Part shown: positions 36,401-61,483 of the stretch, piece by piece
Position numbering within the stretch: position 1 is the stretch's first letter
Layout: each line of letters begins with the position of its first letter
Origin: a virus
DNA length: 64,000 nt
Virus record (IMG/VR): IMGVR_UViG_3300029826_000001
Coordinates: 3,304 to 67,303 of that record
Reading direction: 5' to 3' (one strand)
Notes under the pieces: generated by a model
Database searches by the model: none
Told to the model about the DNA's origin: nothing
The model's input: only the letters and a program-made list of their open reading frames with translations
Program-made: the position numbers and the translations under genes

Positions 36401-37168
36401 ATGGTCGAAGATTCAAAAAAGAATGACATTGTAATTTCTGAACAAAAACCACAAAAGGACAATTGGCTTACACTCGAAGAAAAGCAGATTGTTATGACAC
36501 AGTTTTTCCCACCTAATGCTACTCAGGCAGATATGGTGTACTGCATGAATGTTGCAAAGACTTTCAACCTCAACCCTATACTAAAGCAAATCTTCTTTGT
36601 TAGCAGAAGAACAAAGAATGAAGAGACTGGACAGTGGATAACAAAAATCGAACCGCTTGCTGGTAGGGATAGTTTTCTTACCCTCGCACACAGAACAAAG
36701 ATGTTCGATGGGATAGAGAGTCATATTGAGGTCAAGGAGATACCTTCACTTGAAAATGGTGAATGGGTTATGAAGAAAGAGCTTGTTGCCATTGCGAATG
36801 TATGGAGAAAAGACACTCAAAGACCATTCTCGGTAGAGGTATCATACAGCGAGTATGTACAAAAGACAAGCAATGGAGAGGTTACAAAGTTCTGGAAAGA
36901 TAAGCCTCACACTATGCTCAAAAAGGTTGCAGAGTCTCAGGCACTTAGAAAGGCTTTCAATATCACTGGTCTATACGATGAAAGTGAGCTTGATAATGAG
37001 GCAGAGAAAAGAAAAAACACAACAAATGCAAAAGAAAATCTTGATGAAAAACTTGAGATTCCATATGCAACAAAAAATAATGTACCTCAGAAACAAGTAG
37101 TAGAAGAAGAATATATCGAGCATGACGATATTGTTGTTGAATCAATAACTGGTGAAGAAAATGAATGA
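36401..37168 (+). CDS. bet: Bet/RecT-family single-strand annealing recombinase
   Basis: LNP..KQI.F, W...P.TML.KVAESQALRKAF..TGLYDESE. Confidence 0.9.
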   Translation: MVEDSKKNDIVISEQKPQKDNWLTLEEKQIVMTQFFPPNATQADMVYCMNVAKTFNLNPILKQIFFVSRRTKNEETGQWITKIEPLAGRDSFLTLAHRTKMFDGIESHIEVKEIPSLENGEWVMKKELVAIANVWRKDTQRPFSVEVSYSEYVQKTSNGEVTKFWKDKPHTMLKKVAESQALRKAFNITGLYDESELDNEAEKRKNTTNAKENLDEKLEIPYATKNNVPQKQVVEEEYIEHDDIVVESITGEENE

Positions 37169-38234
37169 GACACTCGGAGTAATTGAGAGCAGTGAAGAGT
37201 ACCATAGCAACAAAGCTATTGGTAGTACAACTTGCAAGGCATACATGGTAAACCCAGTAAAGGCATACAAGACATGGAGTGGTGAGATTGAGATGAAGGA
37301 GTCTCAGGCATTGATTGATGGCAAGTTGATTCATTGTCTGATACTTGAGCCTCATGTGTTTAACGATGAGTTCCATATTCTTGGAGATGGTGACATAAGA
37401 TACAATAAGGAACTTGTTCAACACATAGAGGAGAATATACTAAATAAACGAATGGTATTGTACCCTCAAGAGCTTTTAACACCTTCTGGCAACCTATCAT
37501 CCTCAAAAAAGGCAAAAGAGGAAATAGAGGCATTTAAGCTTAAAAATGGGGATTGTTTATTTTTAACACCAGCTCAATACGCTGAATACAAGTTTTATCT
37601 GAATGTAAAAGGCAAGATTTTAATTACCAATGAGCAGTACGAGTATGCAAGTAAAATAGCAAAAAAGGCACTTGCATATGAGTTCCAGATGACTACAACT
37701 ATGGGGGTGTTCACGTTTACTCTTCAGGATGCAATCAATAACGAATCTGCGATTATGGAGAGGTCGTTCTACGCATGGTACAACCCAGATACTGGAGAAG
37801 TAACCAAAGAGAAGATGACTGAAGATTCAATCCATGTAAAAACAAAGCCAGACATCATGCTTGAGGTCGGTAAAATGATTTATGTTGTGATTGATGTCAA
37901 GAGTGCCATTGATGCAAGTCCAGATACAGTAAGAAGTGCTGGTAGGTTGTTTTATCATCTTCAGGAGGCACACTATACAAAGATTCTTGAGGCACATGGA
38001 ATCAAGGTGTATAAGTTCAAATTTATGTTCACTGGTAAAGAGGAGTGGTCTACTTGCCAAGATTATGAGTATGGAGAAACTACTAAAGATTTGGGTGTAC
38101 AGCATTTTCACAAAGCAATGAAGATGCATAGACTAGCAATCAATGGAGAAGTCAGGGAGACCATCTTTGATGGAGAAAAGTACGATAGGGAGCCAGTAGT
38201 TGATGTTCCAAACTGGTTGTTTTATCTTGATTAG
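37161..38234 (+). CDS. RecE/ExoVIII-like PD-(D/E)XK exonuclease
   Basis: EEYH...IGST, G.L.H.LILEP, ERSFY, K.KPD, IDVKS, YHLQ.A.Y; adjacent to bet. Confidence 0.85.
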   Translation: MNETLGVIESSEEYHSNKAIGSTTCKAYMVNPVKAYKTWSGEIEMKESQALIDGKLIHCLILEPHVFNDEFHILGDGDIRYNKELVQHIEENILNKRMVLYPQELLTPSGNLSSSKKAKEEIEAFKLKNGDCLFLTPAQYAEYKFYLNVKGKILITNEQYEYASKIAKKALAYEFQMTTTMGVFTFTLQDAINNESAIMERSFYAWYNPDTGEVTKEKMTEDSIHVKTKPDIMLEVGKMIYVVIDVKSAIDASPDTVRSAGRLFYHLQEAHYTKILEAHGIKVYKFKFMFTGKEEWSTCQDYEYGETTKDLGVQHFHKAMKMHRLAINGEVRETIFDGEKYDREPVVDVPNWLFYLD

Positions 38235-42658: not shown

Positions 42659-42977
42659 AGCATATTCAAAAGAAAAACAGCTAGGAAAGTCAAAGAGGGA
42701 AAACCCAAAGAAGATGACAAGAACAGAGCTTGATGCATATGAGACATTCATTGATGAAAAGCAAAAAGGTTTGTGCTTCTGTGGATGTGGTAGACCTATA
42801 ACAGAATATCATCATGCATGGTTCGGAGCATACAAAGACGATAGGTACTTGGTTGGTATCGCACAATATCCATGCCACTATGCAATCCATCATGGAAAAG
42901 ATATTGATTTGAAGTCGAGACTAATCCTACTGTCGAGAAAAAAAGCAAAAGAGCACTGGAAAGACTACAACTCATGA
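42651..42977 (+). CDS. HNH-like zinc-binding nuclease
   Basis: C.CGC....E.HH ... CH..IH. Confidence 0.6.
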   Translation: MSEAYSKEKQLGKSKRENPKKMTRTELDAYETFIDEKQKGLCFCGCGRPITEYHHAWFGAYKDDRYLVGIAQYPCHYAIHHGKDIDLKSRLILLSRKKAKEHWKDYNS

Positions 42978-43372
42978 TTACAAAAAAAGGTAGTGAAGCG
43001 AACGAGCAAGAGATATTTGTCCTCTACTTGGAAAAGCAGAACATACCAGTTATCCCAAATCTAAATGAGAACATATGGTCTGGAATCATAAGATGGGTAG
43101 TAAAGCCAGAAAGCGTTGCACTTGGAATTATAGCTAGAATAGAACAGAAGATGAAGAAGATGGGTAAACGAAAGGGTGTTCCAGATTTATTTATCCCTTA
43201 CCCGTCTGGTAGATATCATGGAATGTATATTGAGATGAAGTATGGAAAAAACAAGGCTACGAACGAACAGATGGAATGGCTACAGAGACTATCGAAGCTT
43301 GGATACTACTGCGTAATATGCTACAGTGCAAAACAAGCGATAACCGCATTTGAAAAATACAAGAAAGGATAA
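42974..43372 (+). CDS. VRR-NUC domain nuclease (resolvase-like)
   Basis: E..EQ, G.RKGVPDL, G.YIEMK, Q.EW...L...GY. Confidence 0.9.
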   Translation: MITKKGSEANEQEIFVLYLEKQNIPVIPNLNENIWSGIIRWVVKPESVALGIIARIEQKMKKMGKRKGVPDLFIPYPSGRYHGMYIEMKYGKNKATNEQMEWLQRLSKLGYYCVICYSAKQAITAFEKYKKG

Positions 43373-43373
43373 T

Positions 43374-43447
43374 TGGCTGTAGTGAAGAGAATCGAACTCT
43401 TTCATCCGTACTGTACGATACAGACCTTCCCTAGTAGAACGCTAAAA
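43374..43447 (-). pseudogene. degenerate tRNA-like element
   Basis: Intact T arm AAGAG-TTCGATT-CTCTT and 3' GCCA, but mismatched acceptor stem and non-canonical D and anticodon arms. Confidence 0.45.
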
Positions 43448-43453
43448 CGATTA

Positions 43454-43530
43454 TGGTGGGTAAGTATGGACTTGAACCATAGACCAACCGCTTATGAGGT
43501 GGTTGCTCTAACCAACTGAGCTACATACCC
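43454..43530 (-). tRNA. tRNA-Ile2/Met (anticodon CAT), Ile2-like
   Basis: GGGTATGTAGCTCAGTTGGTTAGAGCA...CT-CAT-AA...GGTTCAAGTCCA...ACCA. Confidence 0.85.
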
Positions 43531-43544
43531 GAAATATTGATATT

Positions 43545-43621
43545 TGGCTGAGATAGGGGGCATCGAACCCCCAAACATCACATTAACAGTGTGACGGATT
43601 TACTAGTTTGCCTATATCTCA
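43545..43621 (-). tRNA. tRNA-Asn (GTT)
   Basis: TCACA-CTGTTAA-TGTGA anticodon arm, G73, encoded CCA. Confidence 0.85.
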
Positions 43622-43625
43622 ATAG

Positions 43626-43715
43626 TGGAGGAGTATGTAGGATTTGAACCTACGGTAGTTTTAACTACAAGTGACTAGCAATCACCCAGATTAAACCAGA
43701 CTCTCTCAATACTCC
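43626..43715 (-). tRNA. tRNA-Ser (GCT)
   Basis: TT-GCT-AG loop, long variable arm GTAGT/ACTAC, encoded CCA. Confidence 0.85.
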
Positions 43716-43720
43716 ATGTA

Positions 43721-43819
43721 TGGCAAGTATCTCTGGACTTGAACCAGATTTGAGGTCATGACAAACTCAACGCTCTAAAGAAACACTCAACTAGTATCAT
43801 TCCAATATAGCAAATACTT
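43721..43819 (-). ncRNA. atypical 99-nt tRNA-like RNA
   Basis: Paired acceptor AAGTATT/GATACTT-G-CCA and T arm TCTGG-TTCAAGT-CCAGA, with an enlarged non-canonical middle. Confidence 0.5.
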
Positions 43820-43837
43820 ACAGATAAAAAAACAATA

Positions 43838-43912
43838 TGGAGCGTCAGGGTGGATTCTAACCACCGACCTTCCAGCTGGAAACTGGATGCTCTAACACTG
43901 AGCTACTAACGC
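43838..43912 (-). tRNA. tRNA-Gly (TCC)
   Basis: TCCAG-TTTCCAG-CTGGA arm, U73, CCA; variant T loop TTAGAAT. Confidence 0.8.
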
Positions 43913-43928
43913 ATAAGTGGGTAATTGA

Positions 43929-43936
43929 ATTATACA
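43929..43936 (-). promoter_or_regulatory. -10 box for the tRNA operon
   Basis: TGTATAAT on the minus strand about 17 nt upstream of tRNA-Gly. Confidence 0.5.
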
Positions 43937-43952
43937 AGAGTAAACCTTATAG

Positions 43953-44146
43953 AATGTCGAAATGTCGAACTTTTAATGTCGAATTGGTATTTTTATGTCG
44001 AATTTTGGTATTATGTCGATAGATGGTTTATGTTGAATAGTCTTCAAAGCTCGGTGTTTTGGGGGTTTGTGTTGAATGTCGAATGTCGAACATTAATTTG
44101 TCGACTTTTTAAGTTGAGAGTCTTTGGAGGTTAATGGTTTGTCGAA
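43953..44146 (+). repeat. cluster of same-orientation TGTCGA repeats; candidate pac site
   Basis: Nine TGTCGA plus two TGTTGA within about 190 bp, directly upstream of and overlapping the terS start. Confidence 0.65.
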
Positions 44147-44903
44147 AGTAAGCAAAGTTTCAGACAGTACACTTGAAGAAATAAAGATTCTTTGGGAGAA
44201 GGGTGAGAGGAATAATTCCAATATCGCTTCGATGTTTGAAGAGTACAATGTAACTGAAAAGAATATTCGAGACTGGGCTAAAAAGTTCGGATGGACTAGG
44301 GAGCATAAGCCTTCACTGAAGAGACCAAAGGTTGGAGATGCTGGAGCAGTTGTAAGGCTCACAGATAAAAGAAGAAAAAAGAAACCAAAACAAAATCCAG
44401 AAGTACAGAAGAAAACTCACGGAGACCAGCAGAGGGAAGATATACTTAGGTCGATGGAGGAGATAGAGAGAGGTGAAAGATTCTCAACAAAGGAGTTGAA
44501 CGAGATTCTTGAAATCATCCTTGAGATGATAGTGTCTGGATACAGAAAGACACAAATAAAACAGTTTCTGGAACGAAAAAGACAAGTTGCCACCCACTTA
44601 TTTAACGAACTACACTTACACGCTATCAAAGCACTAGCAGACTCAATAGAATATAATATGATGTCAAGATATGCATTCCATGTTGAAGCAAGACTCAGGC
44701 TTTTAAGAAAGCTTGAGGAAAAGGAAGACTGGAGAGGTGTTCATGCTGTGCTTATGGATTTAGGTAGGCTTGAAGGTGTGTATCCTAAAGACCCTATACT
44801 CGACATGAAGGGTGTTGAATCCACCAAGAAGGTATTCGCACTCAAGGTTCCAGATGAGTATAGGAACATGGCTATCACAGCAAAGGTGATTCCAAATGAG
44901 TAG
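44139..44903 (+). CDS. terminase small subunit-like protein
   Basis: HTH-like N-terminus (IA..F....V....IRDWAKK.GW); overlaps terL; TTG start after GGAGG. Confidence 0.7.
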   Translation: MSKVSKVSDSTLEEIKILWEKGERNNSNIASMFEEYNVTEKNIRDWAKKFGWTREHKPSLKRPKVGDAGAVVRLTDKRRKKKPKQNPEVQKKTHGDQQREDILRSMEEIERGERFSTKELNEILEIILEMIVSGYRKTQIKQFLERKRQVATHLFNELHLHAIKALADSIEYNMMSRYAFHVEARLRLLRKLEEKEDWRGVHAVLMDLGRLEGVYPKDPILDMKGVESTKKVFALKVPDEYRNMAITAKVIPNE

Positions 44904-46212
44904 AGTAGAGACACTAGTAGAACAAATTGATATGACGGCTCTGTTCGAGACAACGAACAAAAAGTACATTCCGTTCTACTGGGATATGTCAAGATATTTT
45001 ATTGCATTCGGTGGTGCTGGGTCAGGTAAATCAAGATGGGTCGGTCAAAAGATGCTCTATCGTATGCTTGATGAGACCCCACATAGAATACTTATTGTAA
45101 GAAAGGTAGCAACAACCCTAAGAAAGTCTGTCTTCCAGCTTATGGTCGACTATATCCATAAGTACGGTCTGTCATCGAAGTTCATAATCAGAAAAGGCGA
45201 TATGACCATAGAGTGTGAGAATGGTAACCAGATGTACTTTATGGGTCTTGATGATGTTGAGAAGCTAAAGTCAATCGAGGGTATTACAAGCATATGGATT
45301 GAAGAAGCAAGTGAAATCACTCAAGACGACTTCTTGCAACTAGACTTGCGTTTGAGAGGTTACACTCAAAACTATCAGCAGATTACATTATCATTTAACC
45401 CGATATCTGAGCACCATTGGATTAGAAAACTCTTTTTTACTGATGATATCGAAGAAACGATTGATGAAGACGGATGCTACATCGGTGATGATGTAACGAT
45501 AGTGAAGTCAACTTATCTTGATAATGAGTACATAGACGATAGATATAAAAAGGTTCTCAACGACCTAAAGCTAAAAGACCTGAGAATGTATAATATATAC
45601 GCTCTTGGTAAGTGGGGTGTTCTTGGTAATTTGGTATTTAACCCATACAATGACATCACAAGGTTTCCGACAGTCGCACAGATTCCAGACCTACAAATAA
45701 CATACGGTGTTGACTTTGGTTTTACCAACCCATCAACATTTATAAAAATAGGTTATTCAAAGCTCAATAATGCACTATATTTGGATGAACTATATTACGA
45801 ATCAAACACAACCAAACCAGAATTTATAACAGCCGTCAAAAGGTCAAATCCAGACATGAAAGATATTGTCGGGTACGGTGACTCAGCTGAACCAGCCTCA
45901 ATCAAAGAATTTACTAAATCTGGGTTCAAGATGAAGTCGGCACACAAAGACACAAACATGAGTATCGACTTTATAAATAGGCATACTGTATACATCACAT
46001 CAAGAAGCAAGAATCTAAAAAAAGAGTGGGAAGGATACAAGTGGAAACAAAATAAGGATGGCGAGACGGTTGATGAGGTCGTAAAAACAAATGACCACTG
46101 TATAGATGCTGTTAGGTATGGTGCATACACTAAGTGGGGAATCATTGTAGACTCGAAGGGTCATGTTTCAGATAAGCAAATGTCAATCATCAAATCTTAT
46201 GGCAAATATTAA
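44896..46212 (+). CDS. terL: terminase large subunit, PBSX family
   Basis: GGAGSGKS, GLDDVEKLKS, WIEEASE, SFNP, STYLDN, GVDFGF..P, DSAEP, NDHCIDAVRY. Confidence 0.95.
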   Translation: MSRVETLVEQIDMTALFETTNKKYIPFYWDMSRYFIAFGGAGSGKSRWVGQKMLYRMLDETPHRILIVRKVATTLRKSVFQLMVDYIHKYGLSSKFIIRKGDMTIECENGNQMYFMGLDDVEKLKSIEGITSIWIEEASEITQDDFLQLDLRLRGYTQNYQQITLSFNPISEHHWIRKLFFTDDIEETIDEDGCYIGDDVTIVKSTYLDNEYIDDRYKKVLNDLKLKDLRMYNIYALGKWGVLGNLVFNPYNDITRFPTVAQIPDLQITYGVDFGFTNPSTFIKIGYSKLNNALYLDELYYESNTTKPEFITAVKRSNPDMKDIVGYGDSAEPASIKEFTKSGFKMKSAHKDTNMSIDFINRHTVYITSRSKNLKKEWEGYKWKQNKDGETVDEVVKTNDHCIDAVRYGAYTKWGIIVDSKGHVSDKQMSIIKSYGKY

Positions 46213-46220
46213 TATTAAAA

Positions 46221-46274
46221 TAAGCCAATAATTGTTATAATAATGTACACAAAAACCAACAAAAAAGGAAACAG
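46221..46274 (+). promoter_or_regulatory. early promoter/leader cassette P3
   Basis: TAAGCCAATAATTGTTATAAT...AAAAACCAAC AAAAAAGGAAACAG-ATG; lacks GGACTAG. Confidence 0.85.
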
Positions 46275-46733
46275 ATGAAAACTGGAAATTTCTCTCACAA
46301 GATACCTAGCGACAAATATTGTAGGGTATCAATAGCGGTCGGAGACCCAAAGTATGGTGATAAGCCAGATTTTAAGATAGACCAACTTGCACCGACATGG
46401 AAGCTACTCAATGCATTTAGAAATGAAATGATTACAGAAGAAGAATATGTTGCTCAATTCAATGAACAATTATCTGTACTCAATCCAAAAGGAACGCTAG
46501 AAGCAATCAAAAAAGCGTGTGGAGACAAGGAGCCAGTATTATTGTGTCACTGTGGGAAACAACACTTTTGTCATAGACATCTTGTTGCTGAATGGCTTGA
46601 GAATGGAACTGGTGAAAAAATTGAGGAATTCAATTATGGTGAAACACCAAGATATCATGGAAGAATCATCAAAGGTGTAAAACATAGTGAAGAAGAGCCA
46701 GAACAATCATTAGAATGGAGTCTGTTTGGATAA
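46275..46733 (+). CDS. DUF488-like protein
   Basis: LAPTW.LL...Y...F...L...VLLC.....FCHRHLVAEWL. Confidence 0.8.
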   Translation: MKTGNFSHKIPSDKYCRVSIAVGDPKYGDKPDFKIDQLAPTWKLLNAFRNEMITEEEYVAQFNEQLSVLNPKGTLEAIKKACGDKEPVLLCHCGKQHFCHRHLVAEWLENGTGEKIEEFNYGETPRYHGRIIKGVKHSEEEPEQSLEWSLFG

Positions 46734-47523
46734 GGTTAAAAAGCTTGACGGGATTATATCTAATTGTCTCGAAAAGGATTGCGGATTTGTATGCTGTGAT
46801 TTTGGTGAGAAGGGTCATATTATAATCTTGCCAAATGAGCTTGATGGTATAAATGCAGATATGATGAAGCACCTCACTACAGTAAGTGAGAATGGTGATG
46901 GAAGTCGTTTTGTTAAGTGTACTGCTACAGATAGAGTATCGTGCGACAATGGATATAAACCGATACAGTGTAGGACATTTCCACTGTGGCTGAGAGGAGA
47001 TAGCACTTTTGAGAAGAGCACAAGATGTCCTCTTACTCCAGAAGAGTCAACGCTTCATGCGGAGATGGCAAGAAGATTATTCGACAGTGTTGGAGCAACA
47101 CAAGACTTTCTTGATAAGGCAGTTATCACAATGTATGAAAAACTGTATACAGTAAGAGAAGCAACAAACGATGATTTAGGTGTCATAATGTCCATTTATA
47201 GCATGATAGACGCAGACCCAAATACATTCATCAAGAATGATGTTGTGACGGTAAAAAACCTTCTTAAGAATTCAATTATTTGCGAGTCTGGAGGAAAGGT
47301 TGTTGGATTCATGTTGAAGAACAGCCTATACATAGATACTATCGTTTCAATAAGTGATGGAGCTGGTACTGCAATGATGAAAACACTCAAAGGTAAATAC
47401 CTTGTTCATATCTCGGATAGCAACAGAAGTAGTCTGAATCTATTTAAGAAATTTGGATTCAGGAAGGTCGGTGATGACAAGTTGCATGGATATGATAGGG
47501 GTCTGTATGAAGCTGAGTTGTAG
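46726..47523 (+). CDS. Cys-cluster (YkgJ-like CxxxCxxCC) domain fused to a GNAT acetyltransferase
   Basis: CLEKDCGFVCC...PIQCRTFP...CP; C-term GAGT.MM...N..SLNLFKKFGF. Confidence 0.7.
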   Translation: MDKVKKLDGIISNCLEKDCGFVCCDFGEKGHIIILPNELDGINADMMKHLTTVSENGDGSRFVKCTATDRVSCDNGYKPIQCRTFPLWLRGDSTFEKSTRCPLTPEESTLHAEMARRLFDSVGATQDFLDKAVITMYEKLYTVREATNDDLGVIMSIYSMIDADPNTFIKNDVVTVKNLLKNSIICESGGKVVGFMLKNSLYIDTIVSISDGAGTAMMKTLKGKYLVHISDSNRSSLNLFKKFGFRKVGDDKLHGYDRGLYEAEL

Positions 47524-48253
47524 TATAGGCGGTCTCATTAGAAACAGAGACTTCATAAAGGATATTTGCAACTCAAAGAATCTTGAGCTGGCTTTTATGA
47601 TAAAGAAGCAGTTAGCTATTCCAGAAATCATGAGTGTACTCGATAATGAGAAAGTGTACACTACAGAAGAAAGCAGTAAAGCAAAATCAATCTACCATGA
47701 CAAGAATATAGTGATTGTTGATGCGTTTGAGCGTAGAGAGGGAATCAGCGTTACGGATGCGGTAAAGATAGCAAGCTCTGAGCTTACAGCAATAGTAAAT
47801 TTTTACTGCTGTGAGGAGAGGATACCTACAGATACAGACCTCAATAGAATATACAAGAAGCTGAAGTCGTCTGGATTCGGAAGGGTATCTTTCGGTGGAA
47901 GTATGTTCATTGAGTTTGACTATACAGAATACGATGAGATGAGGGTAGGAGAAGCGTTCCTAACTGGATACTCAACTGTTTACAATAAAGAGATATCTGA
48001 ATGCAATCCTTTCAGTGTCGAGCTTGATATCTACAAAGAGGAGGCAGACAGATATGTCGTAGAACATGGATTCTTGGAGATAGGTGGGTTCACTGATGCG
48101 GATACTGTATGTGTGAACACTGATTTTACAGTAATTGAAAAAAGAAGTGGAATGGTAGAGCGTAATGGTAAGCTCATACTGCATCCAGACTATTTTACAC
48201 TTATAAAGTTAGCACATAATGGAGATTTGAAAAATGCTGAATTTACTAGATAG
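47507..48253 (+). CDS. PLP-dependent amino-acid racemase (alanine/ornithine racemase fold), compact
   Basis: N-terminal Lys (FMIKK), RREGI, NF.C....PT, SFGGS, MRVGEAFLTG. Confidence 0.75.
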   Translation: MKLSCSIGGLIRNRDFIKDICNSKNLELAFMIKKQLAIPEIMSVLDNEKVYTTEESSKAKSIYHDKNIVIVDAFERREGISVTDAVKIASSELTAIVNFYCCEERIPTDTDLNRIYKKLKSSGFGRVSFGGSMFIEFDYTEYDEMRVGEAFLTGYSTVYNKEISECNPFSVELDIYKEEADRYVVEHGFLEIGGFTDADTVCVNTDFTVIEKRSGMVERNGKLILHPDYFTLIKLAHNGDLKNAEFTR

Positions 48254-50240
48254 AACCTTTGGTATGGAGCTTGAGTTTGGTGATGTAATCAAAAATAGTG
48301 TTGACTTGCCAAACGGTTATTCATGGAGCAAGGATGAGCGTAGTATCGTTAATACGAATAGCAAGAAATCTACTCCTTCTGGAGATTATGGTGGAGAGCT
48401 TAATACTAGACCGCTAATGCCGACAAGAAGCGACATTAAAGAGCTTAGAAGCGTAATAAAAGATTGTTTCAATAATCATGGTATTAATATGTGGAATACT
48501 GGATTTGATGGTCACTTGTTCATCGGTGACTTAGAGCTTGAGCACCTAAAGAAGATATTTGCTCTTGGTTACTACACTACCCCTCATATCATAAAAGCAT
48601 TTAAGCTGGGTGAATGGTTTAATGTTGAGCATCTCGTTCCTATTGTAAGCCGTGAGATTTACCAAAGGGTAATGGAAGCGGATACGTTTGAATCACTAAA
48701 GAATACGTTTGCAAACTCATCAAACATCGGACACTATAGATTCCATATAAACATCATGCCGTATTTTAAGACAAAGACGCTTGAGTACAGAATATTCAAC
48801 GGCACTCCAAACTTCAGAGAAACGCTTGAGACTATCAAATTCATGTACAGCTTTTTGGATTATGCATTAAATAACGATATAGAGGATTTCAGAAAGATAG
48901 AGACGCTTGAAGACTTCATGAATACGTTCGATATAAGAGGAGAGTTGCCAAGTGCGATACCACCTCTTATTTTTGCTGAGAGTCACATGGAAGCAGTAAG
49001 AAACATATCAAAGGGGTTCGCACCATCGAGAAAGCTTATAAGTGCATTCATAGATGATAGTGGTGAATCAGTAGCTACAGTTAATCCATTCCACTATACG
49101 ACAGAACTGGCAGTTTACGACAAGAAGAAGTTGACGATATATAACAATTCAGAATACAATGACATTGTGCATCTTCTGGCAACTGGGTCGATGTCAATAA
49201 GTTATGAGAATCAGTTTGAAGTTCTTAATCAGTACAAGGATGGTACGGCAGAGAGAGAGTTGATTCTATTCTTTATCTTTGCAAGAATACAGAAATACAG
49301 TCTAAATACAGAGTATGGAGCAAACGAGTTTATGTCGTATGTTGGTGTGATACCGAATAGTATAGACAAGCTACACGATACAGCGGTGAATCTCATAAAG
49401 ATGTTCGAGAACAGTAAATATGTTCATGGTACTCTAAATGATGCACTGGAGAATGAGCAAGATATTTTATTCCAGCAAGAACTTGACAGTAAATCGAACT
49501 CGGTTGTAACCCAACTGAAGAACAATAGCGATTATGAATCATCGTTTGAAAATCTTTATATATCATACAAGAATATAAAAGAGAAGTCAGAATCGGTGAA
49601 TAAACTGTATGTTGTGAGTCATAATGACTTCTTGCCATTCTATAAGATATCAAAAGACATGAGCACTACCCTCTATTCATCAAAAAAATCTTACGTTGGT
49701 GTAAGGAAGGTAATCGACAAAGATATGAACTTCTCAGTAAAAGTTCCACCAGATGACTATGAGATAACAGATAAAACTAGGATTGAAGTAAGAGAAATTA
49801 GACCAGTAGCATTCACAGTTCTTCAAAGAAATTTTGTGAAAAAGGTGACTAAGTTCAAGCAACCTAAGTTGTGCTATGTAGTAATGTCTGATGGATATGT
49901 TCTTGGTGCGTTTGGGTTTGACTATTCAAAAGATGATAACTATACGTTGTTCTTATTGAGCGACTTTTGTACAAATAACGATGTAAGATTGCTAAGTAAA
50001 CTCATACTATTCATTATCAAAACTAGGGAAGTCAAGAAGATTTTAGAGCGTAAAATTGTTGAAGAAGTGGACAACTGTTACACTAAAGTATACACGACAA
50101 TGCCAGTGAGTATGAAGTATAGAGGAGCTTTCAATAAAGTAAAGACAGACTCACCGAAAAGTTTGCAATATGACTTCAAGTTTGGAGAGATTGAGTCAAT
50201 AGGTCACGCAGTAAGAGAATACAACAAAAGGAGAAAATAA
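48234..50240 (+). CDS. amidoligase domain fused to a probable DNA-modification module
   Basis: RTFGMELEF, ELNT.P, GH, N, TLEYR.FNGT amidoligase motifs; C-term LGAFGF...LLSDF...LLSKL...T..PVSMKYRG as in ParB-linked phage modification proteins. Confidence 0.75.
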   Translation: MLNLLDRTFGMELEFGDVIKNSVDLPNGYSWSKDERSIVNTNSKKSTPSGDYGGELNTRPLMPTRSDIKELRSVIKDCFNNHGINMWNTGFDGHLFIGDLELEHLKKIFALGYYTTPHIIKAFKLGEWFNVEHLVPIVSREIYQRVMEADTFESLKNTFANSSNIGHYRFHINIMPYFKTKTLEYRIFNGTPNFRETLETIKFMYSFLDYALNNDIEDFRKIETLEDFMNTFDIRGELPSAIPPLIFAESHMEAVRNISKGFAPSRKLISAFIDDSGESVATVNPFHYTTELAVYDKKKLTIYNNSEYNDIVHLLATGSMSISYENQFEVLNQYKDGTAERELILFFIFARIQKYSLNTEYGANEFMSYVGVIPNSIDKLHDTAVNLIKMFENSKYVHGTLNDALENEQDILFQQELDSKSNSVVTQLKNNSDYESSFENLYISYKNIKEKSESVNKLYVVSHNDFLPFYKISKDMSTTLYSSKKSYVGVRKVIDKDMNFSVKVPPDDYEITDKTRIEVREIRPVAFTVLQRNFVKKVTKFKQPKLCYVVMSDGYVLGAFGFDYSKDDNYTLFLLSDFCTNNDVRLLSKLILFIIKTREVKKILERKIVEEVDNCYTKVYTTMPVSMKYRGAFNKVKTDSPKSLQYDFKFGEIESIGHAVREYNKRRK

Positions 50241-50977
50241 TGAGCAGTAAATGGAAACTAGTCGAGGTAAACGTAGATGAGGTTGAGTTCACAGAGGTGA
50301 ATGCAAATAGGATGTCTCAATCTGATTTTGATAAGCTTGTGAACAACATAAGAACAAGCGGTCTAAGTTCAGTGATTGCTTGCTACAGAAGAAAAGATGA
50401 TGGCAAGTATGTAATCATCAGTGGTAATCATAGATTCAGAGCTTGTCTAAAGTTGGGCTATACAAAAATCAATATTCTATATGCTGATGAACAAGATATG
50501 TCACACGATGAAATAGTGGCATTGCAGTTATCCCACAACTCATTACATGGTGATGATGATAGAGCGATTCTAAAGAGACTTATGGATGAAATCAAGGATA
50601 TAGATTTTAAAGAGTTCGCTCACATTCAGATTGATGATATTGATGTCGATGATATGTTCAGTGGTTCAATAGTTCCAATGTCTGAGCACTATTCAGTATC
50701 ATTGGTTCTATATAAGAAGGACAAAGAATCAATAGAAGAGCTTATGAGTATTGTTGAAGACAACAACAAAGTAAACGATATGGTTATTCTGGCAGATGGA
50801 GAAAAAAATGAAAAAGTGTTCTTGGAAATGATTTCAGATATCAAGAAAGATTTTGACATAAAGTCATCTAGTATCGCTTTTTCAAAACTACTAGAACTGG
50901 CTAAAGCTGGTTACGGCACACTAGGAACTGACGATGTAGACCCAGAAGAGTTTAGTGAGATACAATCTGAAGACTAA
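50240..50977 (+). CDS. ParB/Srx-family protein
   Basis: NAN.MS..DF.KL..NI...G, Y.IISGNHR.RA, LQLSHNSL.G.DD. Confidence 0.88.
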   Translation: MSSKWKLVEVNVDEVEFTEVNANRMSQSDFDKLVNNIRTSGLSSVIACYRRKDDGKYVIISGNHRFRACLKLGYTKINILYADEQDMSHDEIVALQLSHNSLHGDDDRAILKRLMDEIKDIDFKEFAHIQIDDIDVDDMFSGSIVPMSEHYSVSLVLYKKDKESIEELMSIVEDNNKVNDMVILADGEKNEKVFLEMISDIKKDFDIKSSSIAFSKLLELAKAGYGTLGTDDVDPEEFSEIQSED

Positions 50978-50984
50978 GTTTATT

Positions 50985-51039
50985 TTAAGCCAATAAATGT
51001 CATAATACTTGTACTTAAAAACCAACATAAGGACTAGAC
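50985..51039 (+). promoter_or_regulatory. early promoter/leader cassette P4
   Basis: TTAAGCCAATAAATGTCATAAT...AAAAACCAAC.TAAGGACTAGAC-ATG. Confidence 0.85.
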
Positions 51040-51216
51040 ATGGAAGACATTAAAAAGAAGATAGCCATTGAAGCAATCAGAATGGTTGCAAAGCACTATA
51101 ACACTACAGCATCAAAAGTTGCTCAATCAATTAAAGATGGAAATGAAAAAGTCAAGAATCAAGTTAACTTTATTTGTGTTGCAACTCTAAATAATCTACT
51201 AGTGGAATCGGCATGA
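51040..51216 (+). CDS. hypothetical early protein (58 aa, not in ORF track)
   Basis: First ORF after P4: MEDIKKKIAIEAI...VESA. Confidence 0.7.
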   Translation: MEDIKKKIAIEAIRMVAKHYNTTASKVAQSIKDGNEKVKNQVNFICVATLNNLLVESA

Positions 51217-51386
51217 TGGAGTATCCACTATTCCCAGCAACAAGAAGCAACGAGATTACAGAAGGATATTACTTCTGTATTGTTGGTCAAATCAGTCGAG
51301 GAACTTGTAGTAAGAAAGTGCAGAAGATTATGAGAAGAAATGGTTCTCATGAGTATTTCACATACCATCTGGTATCAGAAAGGTAA
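51213..51386 (+). CDS. hypothetical early protein (57 aa, not in ORF track)
   Basis: ATGA-coupled: MMEYPLFP...LVSER. Confidence 0.6.
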   Translation: MMEYPLFPATRSNEITEGYYFCIVGQISRGTCSKKVQKIMRRNGSHEYFTYHLVSER

Positions 51387-51396
51387 GGAGAAGCAG

Positions 51397-51696
51397 ATGA
51401 GAAGAGAAGAGCTTCGTAGAAAAATAGAAAAGCTAATATCAAGTGGTCATTCCAAGAATAAGATAGAGCTGATTGATGTTTTGTATTATAAGACGGGTGG
51501 TGCTCAAAAGGTTGTGGTCGTGGAATTAAAGATGTATGGTGCACTCTCTTCATCTATTAGGGTTCACTCCAGCGATAGTGCAGAGAAGGCATTGTTGTCT
51601 GCTATTGATAGGCACACCAATGGCGGTGAGCTGGACATGAGTAATTCGGTAACTGGAAAAAGTAGTGATAACACAGCATTGGTAGAGGAGTTATAG
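51397..51696 (+). CDS. hypothetical protein
   Basis: AAGGAG RBS before ATG 51397. Confidence 0.65.
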   Translation: MRREELRRKIEKLISSGHSKNKIELIDVLYYKTGGAQKVVVVELKMYGALSSSIRVHSSDSAEKALLSAIDRHTNGGELDMSNSVTGKSSDNTALVEEL

Positions 51697-51697
51697 T

Positions 51698-51883
51698 ATG
51701 ACAAACTCAGAAGCAAGAAAACTAAAAGTAGGAGACAGAATTAAAGTCTCCACATGGAACAGAGAAGGCAAAAAGACTTGTGAGAGAGATATTGTATGTA
51801 TCGACTCACTTGGTATCGGAATAAGGTTGTTTGGATGGAATCCGTTCTATGTACAGCCACATGAAATTGTAGATAAGGTTTAG
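51698..51883 (+). CDS. small SH3/KOW-like protein
   Basis: LKVGDRIKV; GAGGAG RBS. Confidence 0.6.
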   Translation: MTNSEARKLKVGDRIKVSTWNREGKKTCERDIVCIDSLGIGIRLFGWNPFYVQPHEIVDKV

Positions 51884-51885
51884 CA

Positions 51886-52140
51886 ATGAGTAAAGTAAGA
51901 GGCAAAAAAGAGGAAATCACTTGTGCTTGTGGTTGTGGAAGAAAAAGACTCGTTAGAGTTGCAGATATAAAACGTGGATGGGGGAAATACTTCAACAAGT
52001 CATGCAAAGCAAGACATCAGGAAAAGAGAACTGGTCAATATGCTGATTACCTACATAGAAGAGCAACGTGTACAAGCGAGGTTGACTGCATTGAAAGCAG
52101 TTTCCACCCGCACGACCCATATTCTCTCGGTCAAGAATAA
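51886..52140 (+). CDS. zinc-finger-like phage protein
   Basis: C.CGCG.....R.AD.KRGWGKY..KSCKA..Q..RTG. Confidence 0.7.
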   Translation: MSKVRGKKEEITCACGCGRKRLVRVADIKRGWGKYFNKSCKARHQEKRTGQYADYLHRRATCTSEVDCIESSFHPHDPYSLGQE

Positions 52141-52147
52141 GTAATAT

Positions 52148-52203
52148 TTAAGCCAATAATTGTTATAATACAGATACCAACAAACCAACAAAAAGGACTA
52201 AAA
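52148..52203 (+). promoter_or_regulatory. early promoter/leader cassette P5
   Basis: TTAAGCCAATAATTGTTATAAT...ACCAACAAACCAAC AAAAAGGACTAAAA-ATG; motif duplicated. Confidence 0.85.
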
Positions 52204-52488
52204 ATGAAATTAACTACCTTCTCAGTAAGAGACTTTGACGATAAACTAACTGGTCATGTACTGATTGATATTTCAGACAGAGACAAAGCAAAGGTAGAGT
52301 TTGTATTAAACTATCTTGCTAACATCGGTGGATGGAGCATAGCTAACTGCCCTAACGAGGAAGATGGTGTTTATTCTGACTCAATTTCTGTTCTTTCATG
52401 TGAAGTAAAGCTCGCAAAGGAATATTACAAAGATGCAAAGACTGAACTTCAAAAGCTAATAAAATCAATTCGTGATACCAATTTCTAG
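52204..52488 (+). CDS. hypothetical early protein
   Basis: First ORF after P5. Confidence 0.7.
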   Translation: MKLTTFSVRDFDDKLTGHVLIDISDRDKAKVEFVLNYLANIGGWSIANCPNEEDGVYSDSISVLSCEVKLAKEYYKDAKTELQKLIKSIRDTNF

Positions 52489-60572: not shown

Positions 60573-60830
60573 ATGACAGAAGAACGAAACATTGTTCTAT
60601 GGTACAGAAACAGAGCAGACAAAGACAAACTATACACATTTGATGAGATAGCTGATGGATTCCTTGAGAGTGAATTCTACTCAGACTACAAGAAGGAAAT
60701 GTATCCAAGTATCCAACAAGCACTGGTACATTACATCACAATGGAAGAAGGGCTGAATAGCTCTTATGAGGTGGATATGCTTGACCCCCTGCTTGGTCAT
60801 GTAATCAAAAGACACAAGGAGATGAGATGA
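60573..60830 (+). CDS. hypothetical early protein
   Basis: First ORF after P9. Confidence 0.7.
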   Translation: MTEERNIVLWYRNRADKDKLYTFDEIADGFLESEFYSDYKKEMYPSIQQALVHYITMEEGLNSSYEVDMLDPLLGHVIKRHKEMR

Positions 60831-61483
60831 AGTATGAAGAGTTTACACCAATGCACCAGATACACAAAGAAGATGTTGAAGGTGAGAGATTTAAGATTGA
60901 GAGACTTCATTTATCTGAAGAGGTTGTTGAGAGAGAGAAAAGAACAGCATGGAGAACTGCTGGTGGATATAATGAGGTGAGAGGTCTTGAGGCTGGAACC
61001 TATGTGAAGCTGGTTGATAAGAATAAACGTGAAATTGTGATGTCTGATACATGGATGGAACAAGCTACAAATATTGATTTTGTGAGAAAGGCAAATGGTC
61101 ATGTATTGATTGGTGGTCTTGGTATCGGTATGGTTGTACTTGCAATCCAAGATAAGCCAGAGGTTGAGTCAGTTACAGTAGTTGAGCTTCATCAGGAGGT
61201 TTATGACTTGACAATGAAGCAACTCAAACCTCACCTCAATGATAAGGTCAAAGTGGTGGTACAAGACATCCATGACTTCATACCAGACAGAAAGTATGAT
61301 GTCATCTACTGCGATATTTGGAATAACATCACCAGTGATAACTGGGAGGAGATGAAAGACCTCACAAAGAAGTTCAAGTATAAGGTGAACAGAGAGAATA
61401 AAAACCATATGCTAGACCACTGGAGAAAGAATGATGTTCATAGGCTGTACAAGAAAGAGCAAAATGAAAGATACTTCTGGTAG
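60827..61483 (+). CDS. class I SAM-binding protein (spermidine-synthase-like methyltransferase fold)
   Basis: VMSDT..E, VLIGGLGIG, VVE, YDVIY.DIW. Confidence 0.8.
   Translation: MKYEEFTPMHQIHKEDVEGERFKIERLHLSEEVVEREKRTAWRTAGGYNEVRGLEAGTYVKLVDKNKREIVMSDTWMEQATNIDFVRKANGHVLIGGLGIGMVVLAIQDKPEVESVTVVELHQEVYDLTMKQLKPHLNDKVKVVVQDIHDFIPDRKYDVIYCDIWNNITSDNWEEMKDLTKKFKYKVNRENKNHMLDHWRKNDVHRLYKKEQNERYFW

Follow-up and report, generated by a model that had tools for sequence, protein, structure and literature searches.

To our knowledge, no enzyme other than the Mom protein of bacteriophage Mu transfers an amino acid from a charged tRNA to DNA, which Mom does by itself. Mom is reported to move glycine from Gly-tRNAGly to the N6 position of deoxyadenosine in double-stranded DNA, with a rearrangement on the base then leading to 6-NcmdA, in a study whose main text nowhere uses the terms ParB, fusion, neighborhood or phage-encoded tRNA (PMC13219725, 2026). 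In other phages, amino acids carried on 5-hydroxymethyldeoxyuridine (5-hmdU) or thymidine are described as being sculpted on the DNA by pyridoxal 5'-phosphate (PLP) decarboxylases, acetyltransferases and other enzymes (PMC8989533), and a phage ParB-like protein is reported to be required to activate its cognate thymine dioxygenase (PMC13229309). Here, we analyse five genes (A to E, Table 1) found in a 64,000 nt stretch of viral DNA, bases 3304-67303 of the complete 67,303-bp IMG/VR record IMGVR_UViG_3300029826_000001 (hereafter the window), that encode in order a DUF488 protein, a Cys-cluster-GNAT fusion, a PLP enzyme, a protein of three domains and a ParB-like protein. Together with their relatives elsewhere, these genes probably serve DNA modification of some kind. 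Specifically, we propose a post-replicative hypermodification of adenine that is seeded from tRNAGly and extended by an amidoligase, with PLP and GNAT enzymes tailoring the product on the base, a scheme to which we would give an even chance of being right.

The D protein was modelled with AlphaFold from 37 homologues (mean predicted local distance difference test score, pLDDT, of 90.7) and the model was compared with known structures both by exhaustive structural comparison (VIA) and with Foldseek. The N-terminus, which the initial annotation had read from the sequence as a COOH-NH2 amidoligase, matches Pfam Amidoligase_2 (23.0 bits against a cut-off of 22, residues 52-206), and that assignment is upheld by the structural match between residues 1-246 and the YbdK-type protein 1tt4_A (Z 11.2, root-mean-square deviation (rmsd) 4.0, 220 residues aligned). 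Further matches are to 2gwc_A, of the glutamate-cysteine ligases (GCL; Z 10.6), to glutamine synthetases (GS; Z 9.2-10.1) and to PafA/Dop (Z 8.6-9.4). Residues R7, T8, G10, E12, E14, E55, N57, H94, E184 and R186 are invariant across the 37 sequences, and E12, E14, E55, H94, E184 and R186 may, judging by GS and GCL motifs, be metal and ATP sites.

The middle of D matches Pfam DAM-like-phage2 (residues 269-408, E 5.8e-16), and residues 260-485 match both Escherichia coli Dam (2ore_D; Z 10.1, rmsd 4.9, 184 residues aligned) and Mcbe1 (7m6b_A; Z 9.6). A degenerate adenine-methylase-like fold devoid of DPPY or NPPY had been suspected here, and this is what is found: the motif [DNS]PP[YFWH], sought as a regular expression, occurs in 0/37 aligned family members, and a similar search for the F.G.G or G.G S-adenosylmethionine (SAM) loop found none anywhere in the window D protein. 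D is not expected to methylate, and its Dam-like domain is presumed to be a DNA-binding module that presents adenine.

The C-terminal module of D, for which an acyltransferase fold was sought, is a GNAT: residues 515-667 match Pfam GNAT-phage-like (E 2.2e-30) and the top structural match of residues 510-652 is phage Mu Mom (8bv8_B; Z 10.7, rmsd 3.2, 136 residues aligned), although the next GNAT scores Z 10.0, a tie within one Z unit that leaves the likeness to Mom at the level of the fold and that counts against the scheme proposed above. Foldseek, which confirmed the ligase domain too, returned many GNATs at probability 1.00 and placed Mom 20th, and most structural neighbours of the domain are protein N-acetyltransferases. 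The [QR]xxGx[GA] motif of the coenzyme A (CoA) loop of GNATs does not occur in the window D protein. Instead, the 37-sequence alignment has invariant residues of its own (S576, D577, N581, N582, K589, M627, K628, Y629, R630 and G631) that make up SD...NN...K and MKYRG motifs. By analogy with Mom, we propose that this GNAT-like domain may be an aminoacyl (glycyl) transferase acting on DNA. Homologues of D fall into 38 clusters in a large protein collection (35-100% identity), all with the same Pfam pair and none with an informative name, and a search of the D family profile against the sequences of the PDB gave a spurious match to tektin alone (E 0.4).

Relatives of D were gathered in two scans of viral contigs, of which the first, for the long form found in the window, gave 43 loci and the second, for a shorter form, gave at least 555 relatives in IMG/VR, 80 of which were kept; the combined set comprises 124 related loci (1,247,826 nt), numbered below with the prefix L. 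The shorter form consists of DAM-like-phage1 and GNAT-phage-like domains without the amidoligase, followed by ParB, and is found in 3 distant loci and in 15 cultured actinophage records, with FPPF or APPT where Dam has DPPY. Two Dam-like families thus alternate at the same position, and a Dam-fold domain is conserved in every member at high confidence.

In each of the 43 first-scan loci, the ParB gene comes directly after D at a distance of 0-150 nt, and it adjoins the D-like gene in 115 of all 124 loci (open reading frame (ORF) start -400 to +1500 nt from the D-like stop). In the remaining 9/124 loci, the ParB-positive ORF overlaps the 3' part of the D-like gene, which we attribute to over-extended ORF starts in GC-rich contigs. 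At one locus (L044:7074-9146), a single ORF of 691 amino acids contains DAM-like-phage1, GNAT-phage-like and ParB_N, a natural fusion that ties ParB to the enzyme. The idea that the ParB gene is there to accompany modification enzymes, also put forward in the initial annotation, therefore gains from the neighbourhood survey, in which ParB is an obligate neighbour and is once fused; dependence of D on ParB is suggested by this adjacency and this one fusion. The window E protein itself matches Pfam ParB_N (30.5 bits, cut-off 26.3) and phrog_7405 (E 3.7e-54), and carries GNHRFRA, a GxxRxxA box, at residue 62, with G62, R65 and A68 invariant in 23 sequences, as well as an invariant, family-specific SHNSLHG block. 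No helix-turn-helix (HTH) family is found in E by Pfam, and TIGR00180 scores 35.4 bits, below its cut-off of 58.45.

The DUF488 protein is the third core member of the module. Gene A had been called DUF488-like, and rightly so: its product matches Pfam DUF488-N3a at 51.5 bits (cut-off 27) and phrog_2450 (E 1.9e-23), and carries CHCGKQHFCHR, a C...CHR motif. DUF488 is encoded no more than 2 kb upstream of the D-like gene in 36 of the 43 first-scan loci; in six of the other seven, less than 210 nt of DNA is available upstream, and in the last one a divergent DUF488 can be made out by eye. Over both scans, the figure is 83 of 104 testable loci. DUF488 proteins are part of a phosphatase/rhodanese-type superfamily for which sugars and nucleotides are the predicted substrates, and Burroughs and Aravind reportedly placed them in 2023 in a clade with RNA-binding and RNA-end enzymes. 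In this module, DUF488 may act on tRNA or on a nucleic-acid end, because its gene nearly always lies directly before the tRNA gene.

That tRNA is the strongest clue to the function of the module and one that the initial annotation did not have: tRNA-Gly genes are embedded in the module of related viruses. ARAGORN finds 61 tRNA genes in the 124 loci, made up of 50 tRNA-Gly genes, five with 6-nt or 8-nt anticodon loops (four of which are Gly-like) and six others. The module tRNA genes share the coding strand with the protein genes and follow closely on DUF488, 100-450 nt ahead of the D-like gene or of the accessory genes that go with it. When the loci are dereplicated by their GNAT domains, 25 of 50 testable clusters contain an embedded tRNA at 70% identity and 33 of 63 at 90%, and a scan of bacterial genomes gave a tRNA at 6/20 loci, which in 6/6 cases is tRNA-Gly. 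In Mycobacterium phage Megabear, a tRNA-Gly(tcc) gene annotated by the depositors abuts the Dam-like-GNAT gene. One D-like gene is preceded by a tandem pair of tRNAGly(CCC) genes (L074:1478-1626), and the complete chromosome of the cultured Muribaculaceae bacterium MF13079 has two long-form copies (L130 and L131, 38% and 33% identical to D), each with its own tRNA-Gly, one tcc and one acc. A search of the literature, in which supplements were not covered, found nothing that links tRNA-Gly to a ParB/DUF488/GNAT module.

Alignment of 49 distinct tRNAGly-like sequences yields a cloverleaf in which 18/22 pairs show compensatory changes. The first three acceptor pairs (G1-C72, C2-G71 and G3-C70) are kept in 49/49, 49/49 and 48/49 sequences, and each of pairs 4-7 has 23-28 double compensatory changes. 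No variation is seen at U73, C35 and C36, and position 34 may be U, C, A or G; we take the three invariant positions to be identity elements of bacterial glycyl-tRNA synthetase. A bacterial metagenome-assembled genome (MAG) used as control has the same GCG/CGC ends and U73 in its own tRNAGly(GCC). Five decoding or elbow features (an anticodon loop of 7 nt, U33, a purine in position 37, a D-loop GG and a T-loop TTC) are all kept in only 9/48 module tRNAs, compared with 11/11 control tRNAs from the MAG. That the determinants of charging are kept and the features of decoding lost fits a donor better than a component of translation. Among individual module tRNAs, several have 6- or 8-nt anticodon loops and several have the anticodon ACC or a base other than U at position 33 (these include L020:4842-4912, L022:4029-4099, L117, L126 and L102). 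The idea that these genes are remnants of attachment sites was rejected, as they have the full length of a tRNA, show covariation and are found within the operon on its coding strand.

Unlike D, ParB and DUF488, genes B and C are optional accessories that are interchanged between phages. Genes like C are present in 14/43 loci of the first scan and the two halves of B in fewer, and other loci have alternative enzymes in the same places: a Ddl-like ATP-grasp protein (11 loci; Dala_Dala_lig_C, E 6.8e-18), an AlaDH/PNT-like protein (13 loci) or an octopine/nopaline-DH-like protein (3 loci). Further accessories elsewhere are an Acetyltransf_1 GNAT and an NlpC/P60 fusion (NLPC_P60). The proteins that change places in this way (PLP fold III, GNAT, Ddl-like, AlaDH/PNT-like and octopine-DH-like) are amino-acid enzymes throughout. 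Gene C most likely starts at the ATG at 47507, where its homologues begin in the alignment, and its product is then 248 amino acids long. It is unmatched in Pfam. A profile of 10 sequences finds D-3-hydroxyaspartate aldolase (6qkb, E 0.0066) in the PDB, and a Foldseek search of the PDB with the C model (pLDDT 87) gave 177 matches at E<=1e-3, the 37 of them listed all being fold-type III PLP enzymes. D-threonine aldolase (4v15_B, E 7.5e-9) is the best of these, and D-serine dehydratase, D-threo-3-hydroxyaspartate dehydratase, alanine racemases and YhfX are found alongside it. K33, R77-E78-G79, G130-G131-S132, R146, G148 (RxGE) and Y229 are invariant in 10 homologues, K33 answering to the lysine with which the first barrel strand of fold-type III enzymes ends. 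The PLP racemase named in the initial annotation thus survives as an alanine-racemase fold, but the term racemase describes the fold of the model only, with D-amino-acid aldolases and dehydratases equally near, and the gene is not part of the core. In NCBIfam, ornithine racemase reaches only 17.1 bits (cut-off 480). An ordinary alanine racemase was rejected as an identity for C, which is too short (racemases have about 370 amino acids) and has D-amino-acid aldolases and dehydratases as its nearest structures.

Gene B had been described as a Cys cluster joined to a GNAT. The eight Cys are there, within residues 14-101 of the N-terminal half, and GNATs are found in homologues, but the gene is not core and the GNAT match of the window copy is weak: its C-terminal half gives FR47 with the E-value in Table 1 and ArsN1a at E 0.0014, far below its cut-off. 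The N-terminal half has no Pfam match at E<=1, and a link to YkgJ is at the level of a lead only (an atlas score of 0.90 to a cluster with 18% PF03692 members, and a TM-score of 0.63 to a YkgJ cluster). In relatives, GNATs match Acetyltransf_1 at E 5e-10 (L009, in the equivalent place) and 5.6e-7 (L013, fused to the Cys domain), and neither was recovered by a search seeded with the C-terminal half of B. The Cys-cluster domain has a gene to itself in L002-L005 and forms a fusion with a GNAT in L013 and L020, and the B-type GNAT is a separate gene of 126-135 codons in L002-L007 and L037.

Taken together, these results suggest a late-expressed, post-replicative operon, the core of which would be D, ParB and DUF488. 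ParB, as an NTP-switch DNA clamp or activator, would bring D to double-stranded DNA or hold it there; the dead Dam-like domain would bind the DNA and present a flipped adenine; and the GNAT-like domain would move glycine from Gly-tRNAGly to the exocyclic N6, as Mu Mom does, with either a host tRNA or the phage's own unusual tRNAGly(UCC) as donor. The amidoligase domain would then use ATP to join the appended residue by an amide bond to a second molecule of amino-acid type, and the PLP enzyme C and the Cys-cluster-GNAT protein B might make or sculpt either this second unit or the appended residue by racemisation, aldol chemistry or decarboxylation, or N-acylation. The predicted product is a glycine-seeded, peptide-like adduct of adenine that would hinder host nucleases. 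Among the 27 window proteins scanned with Pfam, there is no DNA polymerase, thymidylate-synthase-like enzyme, nucleotide kinase or hydroxymethylase, which argues for action after replication. An amino-acid-derived base modification, as originally proposed, is still the best reading, but the embedded tRNA-Gly and the mechanism of Mom point to Gly-tRNAGly as the source and not to a free racemised amino acid. A bolder version, which we put forward only tentatively, is that a non-decoding phage tRNAGly serves solely as donor of glycine to DNA, that a ParB-loaded pseudo-Dam/GNAT protein glycylates adenine, and that in this phage the amidoligase domain, a PLP enzyme and a second GNAT then build a short N-capped peptide, possibly containing D-amino acids, on the base, to give a 'peptidyl-DNA' by chemistry like that of peptidoglycan.

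A number of observations weigh against the proposal, in addition to the tie between Mom and other GNATs. When the 37-sequence D alignment was compared with Mu Mom using hhalign, the probability was 0.1 (E 0.66) and the region aligned was unrelated. The xPPF that is kept by the shorter forms, with their DAM-like-phage1 domain, is absent from the window D protein. Unusual features are not confined to the module tRNAs, since the remaining phage tRNAs of the loci and the window are also often non-canonical (4/9 are fully canonical), and the Rfam tRNA model at its gathering threshold recovers just 5 of 12 ARAGORN tRNAGly loci tested; this low recovery fits divergence, and some of the elements may be tRNA-like rather than tRNAs. 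The operon in the window has no embedded tRNA at all. The phage has four tRNA genes only (Met-CAT, Asn-GTT, Ser-GCT and Gly-TCC; 43454-43912, minus strand), clustered in an ORF-free gap between the VRR-NUC gene and terS, and its tRNAGly lies 2.4 kb upstream of gene A on the opposite strand. This tRNAGly combines GCG/CGC acceptor ends with U73 and CCA, is without a D-loop GG and has TTAGAAT as its T loop, and it is possible, by analogy with the embedded genes of relatives, that it forms part of the module. In the nearest relatives, 1/4 contigs has a weak tRNAGly(UCC)-like gene (38.4 bits), again on the opposite strand and about 4 kb upstream, and one complete near relative of 31 kb is without any tRNA. 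With so few tRNAGly genes among the nearest relatives, the donor in this subgroup, if it is tRNAGly, would often be that of the host.

The composition of the genome also speaks against broad protection by such a modification. Relative to a maximal-order Markov expectation, calculated for window positions 1-64000 plus the 3303 nt upstream, GATC is found 8 times where 279 are expected, CCGG 0 times (33 expected), GGCC 0 times (31 expected) and CGCG 0 times (12 expected), and many 6-mer palindromes occur at 0-2 copies. This pattern suggests that the host exerts heavy type II restriction pressure, and such extreme avoidance of GATC, CCGG and GGCC means that the DNA is not generally protected; the anti-restriction role assigned in the initial annotation, which was in any case inferred only, is not supported in this broad form. 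The three avoided sites that contain no adenine are compatible with a modification of adenine only, whereas GATC is not, unless its adenine is no target. GATC, being almost absent from the genome, was considered and judged unlikely as a modified and protected site.

A further difficulty is that a racemase fold, a Ddl-like enzyme, NlpC/P60 and GNATs that use tRNAGly are also the toolkit of peptidoglycan peptides. This leads to an alternative that we regard as unlikely, namely that the chemistry concerns peptides, proteins or the cell wall: the GNAT would use tRNAGly as FemX or the L/F-transferases use their tRNAs, a D-amino-acid peptide would be built on a virion or host protein, on ParB or on an acceptor of peptidoglycan type, and the Dam-like domain would be a scaffold. 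Its resemblance to stem-peptide synthesis (the alanine-racemase fold, Dala_Dala_lig_C and NLPC_P60) is matched by the similarity of the amidoligase to PafA and Dop, which are protein ligases, and by the preponderance of protein N-acetyltransferases around the GNAT domain. Peptide or cell-wall roles were reportedly proposed for phage amidoligases by Iyer et al. in 2009, a view that a citing paper repeats. Set against this are the Dam fold, retained in every member even as two Dam-like families replace one another, the ParB protein, which has a DNA-clamp fold and is an obligate and once fused neighbour, and the position of the module beside packaging genes. The prophage hosts, moreover, are mostly Bacteroidales, in which we know of no glycine interpeptide bridges. 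Bacterial genomes with the long form include Muribaculaceae, Bacteroidaceae, Paludibacteraceae, Tidjanibacter and Capnocytophaga, and the closest copy of D in a bacterial genome (56% identity) is in a Gastranaerophilales MAG.

Rather less likely still is that tRNAGly is the target and not the donor, being modified, protected or replaced in a conflict directed at translation, with the GNAT acting in the manner of TacT or with DUF488 repairing ends. The tight linkage of the tRNAGly genes to DUF488 and to the GNAT gene would suit such a role, as would the reported placing of DUF488 with RNA-binding and RNA-end enzymes, and TacT is described as a GNAT that acetylates Gly-tRNAGly (PMC13219725). The Dam fold, the ParB partner, the amidoligase and the amino-acid enzymes would all be left unexplained, however; half of the dereplicated lineages have no tRNA gene, and the tRNAs keep what is needed for charging whilst losing what is needed for decoding.

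Pre-replicative or small-molecule chemistry, in which a modified nucleotide or a nucleotide-amino acid conjugate would be made as signal, inhibitor or precursor rather than on polymeric DNA, appears improbable. The sugars and nucleotides predicted as substrates of the DUF488 superfamily would agree with it, amidoligases and ATP-grasp enzymes commonly use small molecules, and ParB folds are reported to bind NTPs (PMC12704722), but the enzymes of nucleotide metabolism and replication sought among the 27 scanned window proteins are missing, the Dam fold and ParB argue for polymeric DNA, and both Mom and the ParB-dependent dioxygenases act post-replicatively. Finally, we think it very improbable that the module is an accessory of packaging or partition, in which ParB and a pseudo-methylase would mark or organise the genome for terminase with no covalent modification. 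The position directly after terL in the window and directly before it in near relatives would favour this, but the prophage and actinophage copies are not neighbours of terminase genes, the catalytic residues of the amidoligase are invariant, the GNAT has invariant motifs of its own, and the amino-acid enzymes and tRNAGly would be left without a role.

Adenine hypermodification seeded from tRNAGly is the reading that we retain as the best, and the arrangement of the locus is given in Table 1. The ORFs of the five overlapping genes that had been placed directly after terL are all present on the plus strand, and so are the motifs that had been picked out in their products (FGMELEF, TLEYR, LSKL, PVSMKYRG, RREGI, GGS and RVGEA).

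Table 1. Positions in the window of the five-gene operon, its domains and neighbouring features
Feature	Position	Strand	Evidence or remark
tRNA-Gly(UCC)	43838-43912	-	ARAGORN; Rfam tRNA 64.4 bits
terL	44896-46212	+	Pfam Terminase_3, E 1.6e-53; terS and terL directly before the five genes
Gene A, DUF488-N3a protein, 152 aa	46275-46733	+	Pfam PF22751, E 1.5e-13
Gene B, Cys-cluster and GNAT fusion, 265 aa	46726-47523	+	
Gene B, N-terminal half (about aa 1-140), Cys-cluster domain, probably YkgJ/CxxCxxCC-like, accessory	46726-47145	+	
Gene B, C-terminal half (about aa 141-265), GNAT acyltransferase, accessory	47146-47523	+	FR47, E 0.04 (weak)
Gene C, short fold-type-III PLP enzyme, accessory	ORF 47453-48253, likely from ATG 47507	+	
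Gene D, amidoligase, Dam-like and GNAT-like, 668 aa	48234-50240	+	
Gene D, domain 1 (aa 1-246), ATP-dependent carboxylate-amine ligase (GS/GCL/YbdK fold)	48234-48971	+	Pfam Amidoligase_2
Gene D, domain 2 (aa 260-485), Dam-like fold without methyltransferase motifs	49011-49688	+	Pfam DAM-like-phage2
Gene D, domain 3 (aa 510-668), GNAT-phage-like acyltransferase	49761-50240	+	Pfam GNAT-phage-like
Gene E, ParB/Srx-fold protein, 245 aa	50240-50977	+	Pfam ParB_N

A gap of 62 nt separates terL from A, and the junctions that follow are overlaps (A/B -8, B/C -17, C/D -20 and D/E -1 nt), consistent with translational coupling of the five genes. A scan of 43300-52300 with promoter and terminator consensus sequences was no richer than shuffled sequence (22 promoter-like sites against 28.2 in shuffles, and 4 terminator-like sites against 4.2), so that co-transcription is suggested by the gene overlaps alone. 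The genome as a whole has 104-nt direct terminal repeats and a GC content of about 37%, and almost every sizeable ORF of the window is on the plus strand. In near relatives, the module stands before terL, which begins 1011-1096 nt after the end of D (L002-L007, L012, L035 and L037). The region has no megablast match among 50,697 phage records, NCBIfam gave nothing above cut-offs for the operon proteins, and in PADLOC candidate-system models match A and E weakly only, with B, C and D unmatched.

Elsewhere in the window, an ORF of 822 amino acids (2963-5431) fuses a Mu-type portal (Portal_Mu, E 6e-64) to a Mu F-like head-morphogenesis domain (E 9.2e-21), positions 36401-38234 encode a recombination pair made up of RecT (E 1.9e-35) and a PDDEXK/DUF3799 exonuclease, and a VRR-NUC nuclease is encoded at 42974-43372. 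An ORF of 218 amino acids at 60827-61483 has weak class I SAM-methyltransferase matches below curated cut-offs (Methyltransf_25, E 7.1e-5) and might be a separate modification enzyme. Three of the related loci have a ThiF/E1-like gene (ThiF, E 6.6e-10; L009:4546-5355, L031:4546-5355 and L010:5063-5860) at a distance of two genes upstream of DUF488, and at one short-form locus (L042:4427-5491) the gene directly upstream of DUF488 appears by eye, from its translation, to be like SAM synthetase.

The protein side of the module has evidently been catalogued computationally already. Window proteins belong, above curated cut-offs, to PF22751 (DUF488-N3a), PF22556 (DAM-like-phage2) and PF22559 (GNAT-phage-like), and PF22555 is DAM-like-phage1; we assume that PF22751, PF22555/PF22556 and PF22559 derive from the 2023 work of Burroughs and Aravind, the abstract of which is said to concern DNA-end processing in nucleic-acid-modifying conflict systems. 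Our literature search found no treatment of this module and no experiments on it, though that work and those of Iyer et al. from 2009 and 2013 lay outside the search and may describe the protein module. New features are the linkage to tRNAGly and the extension by an amidoligase, and what is of a known kind is the post-replicative installation of an amino acid on phage DNA.

Were the scheme correct, it would predict a new series of adenine hypermodifications, made by a family much larger and more elaborate than Mom, with at least 555 IMG/VR stretches encoding shorter-form relatives. It would also provide a second case of ParB as cofactor of DNA base modification, a first experimental context for DUF488, and an example of viral tRNA genes that exist for chemistry and not for translation. 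Cultured carriers make the system directly testable; they include Mycobacterium phages (Megabear, for instance, with M. smegmatis mc2 155 as host), Gordonia phages and prophages of Muribaculaceae and Capnocytophaga.

How, then, does the module compare with systems that are already understood? Residues 260-485 of D share the overall fold of E. coli Dam (2ore) and differ in having neither a DPPY-type motif IV nor FxGxG. The FemXAB proteins of Staphylococcus are GNAT-fold transferases that take glycine from Gly-tRNAGly, and the dedicated tRNAGly genes of that organism keep their charging identity and deviate in the elbow and T-arm. Where FemXAB differ is in having peptidoglycan precursors as acceptors and no known Dam-like, ParB or DUF488 partner. 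The 5mYOX/ParB pair is described as a short phage ParB/Srx-fold protein beside a DNA base-modifying enzyme, an arrangement to which E, with no HTH match in Pfam, conforms, although the class of the partner enzyme is different (PMC13229309). The thymidine pathways of phages M6, ViI, SP10 and PaMx11 are likewise reported to install an amino acid after replication, to sculpt it with PLP enzymes and acetyltransferases, and to occur as combinatorial gene sets in metagenomic viruses (PMC8989533, PMC11472151). These pathways are described as starting from pre-replicative 5-hmdU, with kinase and aGPT-Pplase transferases, none of which is found among the 27 scanned window proteins; here, the base is probably adenine and activation probably proceeds via tRNA and the ATP-dependent amidoligase.

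Mu Mom remains the closest parallel. Like D it has a GNAT fold and is expressed late beside packaging functions, the CoA-loop motif being absent from D, and both are linked to tRNAGly, biochemically in the case of Mom and genomically in that of the D family. Sequence similarity between the two is undetectable. R111, S124 and R151 are essential in Mom, and D has S576, D577, K628 and R630 as invariant residues that may or may not be their equivalents. Mom is also a single enzyme with an HTH-like insertion, whereas the GNAT of D is fused to a Dam-like domain and, in this subfamily, to an amidoligase, with ParB always alongside. Mom, the on-base tailoring of thymidine and the ParB-activated dioxygenase together supply an established counterpart for each part of the operon.

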